From Phormidesmis sp. (lineage in GTDB: Bacteria; Cyanobacteriota; Cyanobacteriia; Leptolyngbyales; Leptolyngbyaceae): a stretch of 64,000 nt of DNA. Numbering within the stretch: the stretch's first letter is position 1; every line of letters begins with the position of its first letter. The stretch is from contig CBDFJR010000002.1 of the NCBI GenBank assembly GCA_965248535.1, positions 1,600,001-1,664,000 of the forward strand, given 5' to 3'. A program made the translations under genes and the position numbers. Positions 40,387 to 42,060 of the stretch are shown in pieces. The notes beneath the pieces are model-generated. The model made no database searches and was not told the origin of the DNA. It saw only the letters and a program-made list of their open reading frames with translations.

Positions 40387-40719
40387 TTAGGTTGTTGCCC
40401 CAAATGCGGCTGAGTCATCGAAGATCTCAAACACGCGGTCTAGTTGAGTTAATTCAAAAATAATCCGAATCGAAGCAGACATAGAGCACAGGCTAAACCG
40501 CTTGTTTTGCTTTTGAGCCAGACTCAGCGTAGAAACCAGCACCATCAGGCCAGCACTGTCTAAAGATTCGACATCGCGCAGGTCTACCATCAGAGCCGAG
40601 GTTTGCTCTGATGTCACTGCGATCGCTAGCTGAGTTTGGAGCGCCGACGCATTGGCTGCATTGACATATCCTTGGGGACAAATGACGATGGTTTGAGGAC
40701 GAACGAGCACGCTCTGCAT
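40387..40719 (-). CDS. STAS-domain anti-sigma-factor antagonist
   Basis: VDLRDVESLDSAGL, IFELTQLDRVFEI. Confidence 0.92.
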   Translation of the reverse strand: MQSVLVRPQTIVICPQGYVNAANASALQTQLAIAVTSEQTSALMVDLRDVESLDSAGLMVLVSTLSLAQKQNKRFSLCSMSASIRIIFELTQLDRVFEIFDDSAAFGATT

Positions 40720-40878
40720 TATCTGAATCCCTTGGTTTCTAAATTAAAGAACTTGATGCCGACGCTCTGACAATAACCGCACATCGATCGCAGCGCATCC
40801 CTCAACTACATCGTTTCGCGAAATCTTTATTAGATAAACCCTATTGTTTAAACTTTTCAGTAAGCTCAGTCAGATTAA

Positions 40879-40894
40879 TGTATAAACCCATACA
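40879..40894. promoter_or_regulatory. NtcA binding site in the divergent STAS / omegaRNA-small gene region
   Basis: TGTA-TAAACCCA-TACA, a perfect TGTA-N8-TACA; no canonically spaced -10 box found. Confidence 0.55.
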
Positions 40895-41030
40895 AAATCG
40901 CAGAACTAACTCAACACCGAGACTACCCTAGAAACTTGGTGACTTAAATCACCTTAAATCTACCTGTTAGATCACTTTAGAAGTGAACCAACAGATAGAC
41001 AATCTTAGTCACGGAGTCGTCACAACTTTT

Positions 41031-41272
41031 GTCACTGACCCCGCACTAAAGTGACGGGGATTGGGTAGTCAGACTCAAGTTAAATCAAAGACCAGGGCAT
41101 TCGAGCAAACCGTTAGGGCAGACTTCCGATACTTACTTCGTTCGGATTCACTCTCAGCCCTCTCATTCAGGGCATTGGGTTGAGCGCTGACTGCGCCAAG
41201 ACGGGTTTCCCGTCCTAGGCAAGTGAGCAAGATAACCAAGACATCTTACGGTTTGTGCCCGAAAGGACTTCG
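41031..41272 (+). ncRNA. omegaRNA (HEARO-like) scaffold; the guide would be the ~16-20 nt immediately upstream
   Basis: Multiple stems visible, and sequence blocks resemble recalled cyanobacterial RRXRR (IscB/IsrB)-associated RNAs; 3' end approximate. Confidence 0.7.
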
Positions 41273-41406
41273 ACGAGTTTGCTGGATCTCGGATTGGTCA
41301 GCGTCTAAAATCCAGTCCCCATTAGGGGTAGGCGACGCAAGCCGCCAGTGCGTTTTTCCTCTGCGATTTGAAGAGACATCGTTTCTAAACGTATTAGGAG
41401 TTTCTG
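41031..41406 (+). mobile_element. Non-autonomous IS200/IS605 (IscB/IsrB-type) element consisting only of an omegaRNA/HEARO-like scaffold
   Basis: Starts GTCACTGA followed by the end hairpin CCCCGCAC-TAAA-GTGACGGGG; TCCGA..TCGGA hairpin; long-range pairing GGGCA/CAAACCGT with ACGGTTTG/TGCCC; CCAAGACATC and CGAAAGGACTT blocks; TTCCTC..TGAAG..GTTTC right-end-like block ending at ATGA; no IscB or TnpA ORF. Confidence 0.75.
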
Positions 41407-41601
41407 ATGAAAACTAGTGAGATCATTCGTCAATTGGTGGGAAAAGCACTTTACTTTAAGTGCCTGACCCCTGATATCGAGAACGAAATCAATTATGAAC
41501 TGACCCGGCAAGGACACATTTCTGACGTAGATTATGAAGCGCTTGAGCTTCTGATGGCTGAGATGGATGCAGGTCGAATTCGGCTAGTGCCCAGTTCTTA
41601 G
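41407..41601 (+). CDS. Small conserved-type cyanobacterial hypothetical protein (64 aa)
   Basis: AGGAG RBS 6 nt upstream; IRQLV.KAL...LTP..E..I...DYEALELLM....GRI pattern of a small cyanobacterial family. Confidence 0.8.
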   Translation: MKTSEIIRQLVGKALYFKCLTPDIENEINYELTRQGHISDVDYEALELLMAEMDAGRIRLVPSS

Positions 41602-41619
41602 GGTCTAAACCTGAGAAAT

Positions 41620-42060
41620 CTATAAACCGTGCTCCTCCCTTGACGATCGCGTTTTATTTCCACTGTTAGAAAAAGCATCAGGGTGACATTGGCAGAGTTG
41701 ATGAATGAACTCGCGAAGCTGGCGGTGAGCCGCTATTGCTTGAGGAGTCGAGCTAGTAAGTTCATCTAGACCATAGAGAGACGACAGCACAGGGATAGCT
41801 TCAACATCCAAAGCGGGACGAAAGAGAACGATCGGTAACAATAAGTCTGACCCTTGCCGTAAATCATGCCAGTCGGGTGTTGACTGCGATGAATCTATCA
41901 CCAAAACTAGAGGACGGGCCCAGCATAAGCGTCGAGCCTCCACAATTTGCACGACTTCAGCATAGAGGTGAGTTGCGTCAAGCTCAAGACAGACAATCTG
42001 TGAAGGCTGAAACTGAACGCTCCAGGCTTTTGCCGCTTGAGGGTGTGAATCCAGATCCAT
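41620..42060 (-). CDS. Hypothetical protein (cyanobacterial)
   Basis: FQPSQIVCLE...LYAEVVQIV..R.LCWARPL...DLRQGSDLLLP..LFRPALD.E; coherent 146-aa ORF. Confidence 0.75.
   Translation of the reverse strand: MDLDSHPQAAKAWSVQFQPSQIVCLELDATHLYAEVVQIVEARRLCWARPLVLVIDSSQSTPDWHDLRQGSDLLLPIVLFRPALDVEAIPVLSSLYGLDELTSSTPQAIAAHRQLREFIHQLCQCHPDAFSNSGNKTRSSREEHGL

Follow-up and report, generated by a model that had tools for sequence, protein, structure and literature searches.

How does a piece of mobile DNA come to end exactly at the start codon of a conserved gene, and can that gene be translated from a ribosome-binding site which the mobile DNA itself carries? The question is raised by a 64,000-nt stretch of the genome of the cyanobacterium Phormidesmis sp. 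(assembly GCA_965248535.1, contig CBDFJR010000002.1, positions 1,600,001 to 1,664,000 of the forward strand; hereafter the window, with coordinates counted from its first nucleotide). It holds a 376-bp element devoid of any protein gene, whose last base abuts the ATGA opening a gene for a protein of 64 amino acids. Taken as a whole, the best explanation is that this element descends from cyanobacterial ISC1 (IsrB) elements of the IS200/IS605 superfamily as a non-autonomous form lacking protein genes, and that docking at start codons recurs among such elements; we consider this likely. Taken by itself, the element is nothing out of the ordinary, a decayed member of a published family. The main interest lies in the surrounding pattern, ATGA-flanked IsrB/IscB elements standing at a start codon in about three quarters of the loci read.

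Insertion and identity of the element

We examined the borders of the element by a DNA search with the locus against 41 relatives. In the window the junctions read CACGGAGTCGTCACAACTTTT / GTCACTGACCCCGCACTAAAGTGACGGGG ... CGTATTAGGAGTTTCTG / ATGAAAACTAGTGAG (slashes mark insertion points throughout), where GTCACTGACCCCGCACTAAAGTGACGGGG starts at 41031, CGTATTAGGAGTTTCTG ends at 41406 and ATGAAAAC starts at 41407. Matches from the same genus break off at the left border of the element and continue at the ATG. All five aligned congeners (G007, G002, G001, G006, G003) read ...GTCGTCACAAC-CTTAT/ATGAAAACTAGTGA with nothing in between; G004, showing the same break in the DNA search, was left out of the alignment. 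Because the flanks are directly joined in all five, 41031-41406 is a true insertion. The right border is exact and the left one good to about 1 nt, with CTTAT (5 nt) in the relatives against TTTT in the window, in a stretch of about 18% divergence between species. A sequence-only reading of the locus had set the element exactly against the ATGA start codon and predicted the empty site. Sequence and empty congener sites confirm the former, and the predicted empty site is borne out within 1 nt, none of the five aligned congeners having a different junction.

The ATG at the junction is the native start, since orthologues of the gene show the same start. Compared with G001, the gene differs by 30 synonymous codons and one non-synonymous codon, and the window has no amino-acid change of its own. 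The gene is thus under strong purifying selection; its product is almost invariant across the genus and is also present in other cyanobacterial families. The parts of the locus are as follows (TAM, target-adjacent motif; ORF, open reading frame).

41007..41030, + strand: host 5' leader adjoining the element, which would be read as the guide of an omegaRNA, judged by its position 5' of the scaffold and by the congener empty sites
41031..41406, + strand: whole 376-bp protein-less ISC1/IsrB-type (PATE-like) element, lacking in all five aligned congeners, with both ends homologous to full-length IsrB/IscB elements
41031..41274, + strand: IsrB-type omegaRNA scaffold, by alignment with 11 relatives, covariation and a weak match to HEARO RF02033
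41039..41059, + strand: first hairpin, CCCCGCAC-TAAA-GTGACGGGG, helix 2 of the alignment, with five of its seven pairs covarying
41184..41235, + strand: hairpin module of about 50 nt in a variable scaffold loop, which 10 of the 11 aligned relatives lack; L034 carries another insert there
41275..41329, + strand: vestige of isrB (ribosome-binding site and start) with a small hairpin (CCCC-ATTA-GGGG) behind it; the vestige aligns around the isrB start of full-length elements
41330..41406, + strand: terminal segment of 77 nt, which the TnpA convention, reading the opposite strand, counts as the left end; identified by homology to an IscB element end
41364..41381, + strand: subterminal hairpin CGAT-TTGAAGAGAC-ATCG, a candidate TnpA hairpin, with compensated stem changes between ends
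41382-41386, + strand: TTTCT after the 3' hairpin, candidate guide tetranucleotide for TCAT/ATGA, by analogy with IS608; TTTC follows the hairpin in both end types
41396..41400, + strand: AGGAG, a Shine-Dalgarno-like motif supplied by the element, its function putative
41407..41410, + strand: ATGA, insertion target or TAM and host gene start, by sequence and empty sites; the N/ATGA of ISC1-1_MA (PMC4810608)
41407..41601, + strand: conserved host gene of 64 amino acids, an ORF with orthologues of the same length in five congeners and no Pfam family

The features of the insertion are those of IS200/IS605 elements. No target site is duplicated beside the 4-nt target (the empty sites of the five congeners end ...CTTAT/ATGA), and both ends carry subterminal imperfect hairpins, with no terminal inverted repeats. 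The hairpin at 41039-41059 is at once the subterminal hairpin of the 5' end and the first stem of the scaffold. At the other end, the terminal segment is 77% identical to the stretch behind the IscB stop codon in one full-length element (L036 = L130), and similar ends occur at L065, L146, L147, L047, L048 and L049. The stems of these ends change in a compensating manner (CCCAG/CTGGG in L065, CCCTGT/ACAGGG in L130, CCCAC/GTGGG in L048, CTCAG/CTGAG in L049).

The assignment to the IscB/IsrB kind, already made from the sequence, stands on the scaffold. We aligned the first 244 nt of the element with 11 relatives, giving 12 sequences, seven adjoining isrB and five protein-less. Compensatory changes were found in 38 of the 51 consensus pairs, and 95.9% of alignment cells were paired, as against 31-46% with partners slid by one to three columns; none of 500 shuffles reached the observed values. 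As aligned, the window keeps 44 of the 51 pairs, and four of its seven misses fall in one helix, helix 3, which as we read the sequence is there in a shifted register. The sequence and secondary structure are common to RNAs directly upstream of isrB, the mark of an IsrB omegaRNA, and the scaffold of the window is structurally intact. A match to HEARO RNA (RF02033, an IscB-type omegaRNA) starts at the first base of the element and covers its first 110 nt; it scores 16 bits (E 0.97, lax settings) and is the best in the 5.03-Mb genome. The original HEARO paper, by Weinberg and co-workers in 2009, reportedly noted ATGA/GTGA flanks. Folding of the whole stretch gave z-scores of -1.44 (+) and -3.66 (-), so weak that single-sequence folding leaves the strand undecided.

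Could the 376 nt instead be a native structured leader of the gene, riboswitch-like or an attenuator, that does not move at all? Structure and a place between promoter region and start codon would suit such a leader. However, the stretch is absent from all five aligned congeners, it is homologous to IsrB/IscB omegaRNAs and to ends at unrelated loci, and no Rfam family reaches its gathering score anywhere in the window. This refutes a native leader as far as we can judge, and we give it practically no chance. A group I or II intron or an IStron was likewise rejected, as no intron family matched and the insertion lies outside coding sequence.

Relatives were collected from about 400 genomes of the class and by a pattern scan of a species-level genome collection (33 loci, all but one titled cyanobacterial). 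With the whole element as query, only partial matches were obtained, in 11 of the 400 other genomes of the class. Full-length relatives have the same 5' sequence and, no more than about 230 nt behind it, an ORF of about 350 amino acids, in which the PLMP and GxDPG motifs were recognized by eye and which matches PF14239 (Pfam, E 3e-42). At about 355 amino acids it is too short for an HNH insert, and we call it IsrB on length only, no separate search for HNH having been made. Within 41031-41406, the ORF list contains only short unsupported frames. Protein-less relatives of 290-380 nt were found at L034, L040, L046, L039, L050, L051 and L052. The vestige at 41275-41329 has the same layout in L034, L040, L046 and L051; a remnant of the isrB start shared in this way suggests that the deletion derivatives form a single lineage and did not arise by many independent decays.

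The window's own genome, 99.76% complete by marker genes, lacks the partner protein. No match to PF14239 was found in it, while the positive control gave matches in five of five other cyanobacteria with sibling elements. Neither a search with a single IsrB protein nor a tblastn search of the genome with six IsrB proteins gave a match, and tblastn with three IscB proteins returned only pieces the size of HNH. A cognate IsrB is thus encoded neither in cis nor elsewhere in this genome, which makes the guide-RNA scaffold an orphan. Y1 transposases (PF01797) gave 11 matches, of which at least five span 110 of the 121 profile positions without a stop. To judge by these sequences, the orphan scaffold could still be mobilised in trans by a Y1 transposase. 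The element is present in one copy. Contigs from two DNA runs contain only the occupied allele, one contig covering the whole stretch; no joints of an excised allele were seen in these contigs, the best of which may be the assembly's own source.

Docking at start codons

If siblings of the element also sit at start codons, as was predicted from the sequence, their 3' junctions should tell. We counted 33 readable junctions, from elements of the IsrB/IscB type, from protein-less copies and from solo ends, taking as a start any ORF of at least 46 codons running from the junction NTG. Such an ORF opens at 19 of the 33 junctions and at 18 of the 23 that are ATGA, which confirms the predicted enrichment. 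Pfam families were recognized in 10 of the 17 ORFs scanned. In six of them, profile positions 1-3 align to ORF residues 5-14 (DUF2237, CRR42-like, GatB_N, DnaG zinc ribbon, Phos_pyr_kin and NAD_binding_8), and therefore the junction ATG is the real N-terminus in these six cases. Docked genes include dnaG, gatB, thiD, an S1-domain protein gene and sppA-like genes.

The background was taken from the window's own genome, with 36,178 ATGA sites. Of these, 25% have 50 or more open codons behind them and 5% provide the first ATG in an ORF of 100 codons or more; among sites not interrupting a crude gene, starts make up 14.5%. For 18 of 23, the binomial test gives p = 1e-7 with the 25% background and 1e-11 with that of 14.5%.

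Several loci did not enter the count. The end was not confidently recognised at L119, L121 and L124; the contig ended first at L068, L070, L072-L076, L079, L081, L084, L086, L088, L090, L092, L093 and L095; the scaffold was truncated or interrupted at L078 and L082; and at L083 and L087 isrB is interrupted and no end was found in the locus. Duplicates were counted once (L064 = L040, L035 = L066, L096 = L091, L097 and L069 = the L085 site, L036 = L130, L037 = L129). In the genome G030, two copies share 9 nt past the end and might have been thought to bring their own ATG; this was rejected, as five copies there diverge right after ATGA.

For comparison, all copies of the Microcystis-type end were collected from two complete genomes of Microcystis, with a start defined as an ORF of at least 50 codons. 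Both junctions of IsrB ends open an ORF (2/2). All other ends of this type (TnpB/PATE) do so at 8 of 21 junctions, namely 6 of 13 with antisense tnpB (TnpB confirmed by Pfam in all three tested) and 2 of 8 short protein-less ends. The starts hit by the TnpB group include dnaN-like and adk-like ORFs, with N-termini read by eye. The share of 8/21 exceeds the 14.5% null (p 0.007) and falls below 18/23 (Fisher p 0.013). Start-codon docking is therefore recurrent for ATGA-targeting elements in the cyanobacterial loci examined, and it is stronger for IsrB/IscB elements than for the TnpB and protein-less elements of Microcystis.

These numbers also bear on the possibility that docking is a mere by-product. 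Y1-driven insertion would then strike any ATGA/TCAT, copies inside genes would be purged, starts would form a large harmless share of what is left, and the AGGAG would play no part in translation. It accords with this that TnpB and protein-less elements sharing the end are also raised above background, that the ATGA target is published for both kinds (PMC4810608), and that Shine-Dalgarno-like motifs do not go together with docking (see below). But the crude null that already excludes disruptive sites is 14.5%, against 78% observed for IsrB/IscB and 38% for TnpB/PATE elements. Avoiding coding sequence is not enough to account for the observed shares, which also differ between the two kinds. We hold the by-product explanation to be unlikely.

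Several points weigh against our own reading, recurrent docking of an ISC1 derivative, as well. Junctions of TTGA, GTGA, ATGC and ATGG open an ORF in only one of ten cases. TnpB elements need no host promoter yet exceed the background, so capture of a promoter is not the whole cause. The sample is small and non-random, coming from one 5' pattern scan and from BLAST and Pfam matches, and it includes five sites from Microcystis and six from the single genome G030. Since copies and hosts are related, the p-values overstate the effect, and the background is that of the window's genome and not of each host. The 16 bits of the window miss the HEARO gathering threshold of 83 bits. Finally, read-through of the element, the guide role of the leader and translation from the AGGAG are steps that we infer.

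Part of this was known beforehand, namely N/ATGA targeting and the existence of protein-less, omegaRNA-bearing IS200/IS605 derivatives. N/ATGA is the published target of cyanobacterial ISC1 (IsrB) elements and of TnpB elements with the same ends (Kapitonov, Makarova, Koonin 2016, PMC4810608), and the TAM of IsrB is NTGA, with NTG in two cyanobacterial orthologues (Hirano et al. 2022, PMC9581776). An ATGA flank is accordingly what one would expect. A full-text literature search, which extended neither to supplements nor to the original HEARO paper, found no statement of start-codon docking. The term 'start codon' has no occurrence in the available text of Kapitonov 2016 (PMC4810608), in Goltsman 2022 or in the 2026 OMEGA review, and its one occurrence in Meers 2023 concerns another matter.

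The AGGAG motif and translation of the host gene

The AGGAG inside the element was read correctly from the sequence as lying 6 nt before the ATG. The spacer TTTCTG (41401-41406) separates it from the ATG at 41407, so that a purine-rich motif stands within the 5-10 nt upstream of the start where a ribosome-binding site is expected. Within -16..-5, AGGAG precedes 5.6% of crude gene starts of the own genome and 0.5% of random places, an 11-fold difference; for GGAG/GAGG the figures are 17% and 4.3%. Local folds around AGGAG and ATG are unremarkable (z 0.65 and 0.05).

Among the similar ends, AGGAG is kept in L065, L130 and L048, GGAGG is found in L146, and neither in L047, L049 and L147. Because the AGGAG-type end was matched in only 3 of the 400 other genomes of the class, conservation of the motif rests on few ends. 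In the wider set, GGAG/GAGG lies within the last 16 nt of 10 of the 33 ends, in several lineages, five of them at starts and five elsewhere. The 19 start-docked ends comprise five with GGAG/GAGG, three with only AAGG and 11 with no such motif, and all five docked ends from Microcystis (...CCCAATTTTTCG/ATGA) are without one.

What did the gene use before the insertion? The sequence-only reading had proposed a GGAG in the leader as the original ribosome-binding site. This proposal found no support. In the empty sites of G007 and G002 the GGAG lies 17 nt from the ATG, and it is not kept in G001, G006 and G003; the congener empty sites have no conserved Shine-Dalgarno sequence at all.

Possible scars of such ends were also found. 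At G000:C2:1298980-1299005 (minus strand, locus L131), in the own genome, GTTTCCAAACCTATCAGGAGTTTCTG corresponds to the last 26 nt or so of the AGGAG-type end and stands directly before an ATGA start. The gene behind it is TM2-domain-like (by eye), and in nine relatives the corresponding leader, about 50 nt long, is a different one. By its sequence, L131 is probably the tip of an AGGAG-type end left after deletion of the rest of the element and part of the old leader, and probably acts today as leader of the TM2-like gene. In G002 and G014, solo 78-nt ends head ORFs.

One may thus suppose an adaptive end, whose replacement Shine-Dalgarno sequence makes docking nearly neutral and whose AGGAG at 41396-41400 now drives translation of the 64-amino-acid protein. 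The near-ideal AGGAG-N6-ATG arrangement and its enrichment at crude starts speak for it, as do the occurrence of GGAG/GAGG in 10 of 33 ends against 4.3% of random places, the lack of a conserved Shine-Dalgarno sequence in empty sites of a gene still under purifying selection, and the scar before the TM2 gene together with the solo ends of G002 and G014. On the other hand, most start-docked ends (11/19, including every Microcystis site) lack such a motif, and the ends possessing it are split evenly between starts and other places. The AGGAG may persist by descent in one end type or for folding of the single-stranded end, and only 17% of crude starts use GGAG/GAGG, so a Shine-Dalgarno sequence is not needed. 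We regard the adaptive end as a real possibility, though one that we would rather doubt than believe. The built-in ribosome-binding site proposed from the sequence alone has therefore stood in part: AGGAG-N6-ATG recurs in one end type, but it is no general property of docked ends.

Comparison with IS608 offers another view of the motif. There, the cleavage site lies 19 nt from the foot of the hairpin and is read by the tetranucleotide beside that foot (PMC3201880). If the same holds for the window element, the spacer that separates the candidate guide TTTCT from the cleavage site would contain the AGGAG. The motif is then probably not needed for reading the target, and it may have a role in single-strand folding.

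Guide geometry, known systems and relatives

How might an element of this kind arrive and stay at a start codon? In the scheme that we favour, a Y1 transposase acting in trans would paste the single-stranded element 3' of TCAT on the opposite strand, that is, 5' of ATGA on the gene strand, the target probably being read by the tetranucleotide beside the hairpin (TTTCT, 41382-41386) as in IS608. As the scaffold has no guide of its own, it could be transcribed together with a guide only from an upstream host promoter, and the slot between promoter and start codon would supply such a promoter for leader plus scaffold. Copies in this slot would persist because coding sequence is left untouched and the host promoter transcribes leader and scaffold. 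With IsrB in the genome, the leader-scaffold RNA would target the empty site (leader plus ATGA), favouring retention.

The geometry of the locus fits guided nicking of an NTG(A)-flanked target: the leader 41007-41030 joined to ATGA recreates the empty site found in the five congeners. A guide role of the leader would follow by analogy from the layout of IsrB loci (PMC9581776). Borrowing of a host promoter for guide and scaffold, proposed from the sequence, suits this layout; but no beneficiary is left, given that the own genome has no IsrB/IscB gene. As there is no nickase, the element would be a relic read through by the host gene, in an RNA with the predicted order leader, scaffold, AGGAG leader and ORF. 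Since the gene is under purifying selection and the element contains no terminator-like site, both read-through and translation are expected, and the protein is probably still translated from its original ATG behind the AGGAG-N6 leader.

A promoter and terminator scan of 40700-41700 gave no promoter-like and no terminator-like site, and the host promoter is therefore not located. About 80 nt upstream of the insertion point there is an inverted repeat, GGTGACTTAAATCACC (40938-40953), which hardly varies among the five congeners and may serve the gene as an operator or promoter element.

Among described elements, ISC1-1_MA of Microcystis aeruginosa (PMC4810608) is similar in its 5' terminus GT(CA), in insertion at N/ATGA without duplication, in its cyanobacterial host, and in sharing ends with IS605B (TnpB) elements and presumed Y1 mobilisation in trans. 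In contrast to it, the window element has lost isrB and has a 3' end of another type, AGGAG-bearing and closest to the end of an IscB element. The Microcystis copies L067, L080, L085, L091 and L094 probably belong to the ISC1-1_MA family, an assignment made without comparison to the published consensus. The IsrB-omegaRNA nickases (DtIsrB, CwIsrB, DsIsrB; PMC9581776) resemble the locus in that a scaffold about 300 nt long precedes isrB and is itself preceded by the guide, and in having an NTGA/NTG TAM 3' of the target, as in the flank of the window element. They differ in that the own genome has no IsrB, and the homology demonstrated here is only to scaffolds adjoining cyanobacterial isrB. PATE-like elements (Meers et al. 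2023 preprint, 10.1101/2023.03.14.532601) likewise consist of ends and a guide-RNA scaffold with no protein gene and would need a nuclease and TnpA in trans, but they derive from Geobacillus IscB/TnpB families with other target motifs.

According to the same preprint (10.1101/2023.03.14.532601), IscB elements tend toward the orientation of the upstream gene. If the docking pattern holds, this bias would be linked to the need of a host promoter for an external guide, the elements would routinely rewire 5' leaders of core genes, and transposon-derived ribosome-binding sites would be predicted as lasting scars. One can go further, tentatively and with the odds in our estimation against it, and regard docking as a strategy of ATGA/NTG-targeting omegaRNA transposons. 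Some lineages would pay for it with a translation-leader end, decay would leave selected leader-bearing tips, and protein-less copies would be self-propagating, promoter-riding guide RNAs. Should docking be such a strategy, host genes would own transposon-derived ribosome-binding sites, for example the TM2 scar and the solo ends of G002 and G014, and the elements of the window, L034, L040 and L046 would share one architecture in a self-propagating, promoter-riding lineage.

Some observations concern the parts of the element. The hairpin module at 41184-41235 follows the pattern ..GCGC..AAGACGGGTTTCCCGTC..GGCAA.TGAG.AAGA. Copies about 80% identical to it are found in six copies of a repeated element of the own genome, about 400 nt or more in length (C2:1792884-1792934, C2:982634-982684, C2:1965516-1965563, C5:460122-460173, C5:1479019-1479069 and C5:1703058-1703105). 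This repeat ends in ...GGGAGTGTCAA, resembling the omegaRNA end of TnpB elements, and is presumed to be TnpB-type. The module may be a small mobile or modular RNA stem common to IsrB-type and TnpB-type guide RNAs. The first hairpin (CCCCGCACTAAAGTGACGGGG), when reversed, forms the outer end of presumed TnpB-type elements in other cyanobacteria (L041-L044), and repeats of the own genome, also presumed TnpB-type, carry CCCCGCACTAAAGTGACGGGG reversed at their outer end in the same way. This agrees with published findings that ISC and IS605B elements have ends in common.

Other observations concern the relatives. In Microcystis, secondary insertions interrupt some IsrB elements: in L080 about 110 nt are inserted within the scaffold, and foreign sequence shortens the isrB ORF in L083, L087 and L069. 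L065, on a contig titled as an Aeromonas metagenome-assembled genome, is an IsrB element of cyanobacterial type that sits at the start of a dnaG-like gene; the title is probably a binning error in the record. L071, from a Crocosphaera record, is a mini-derivative of about 105 nt, in which the first 88 nt or so of the scaffold are fused to ...CTTTTCTG, and it adjoins the ATGA start of a DUF2808 gene.

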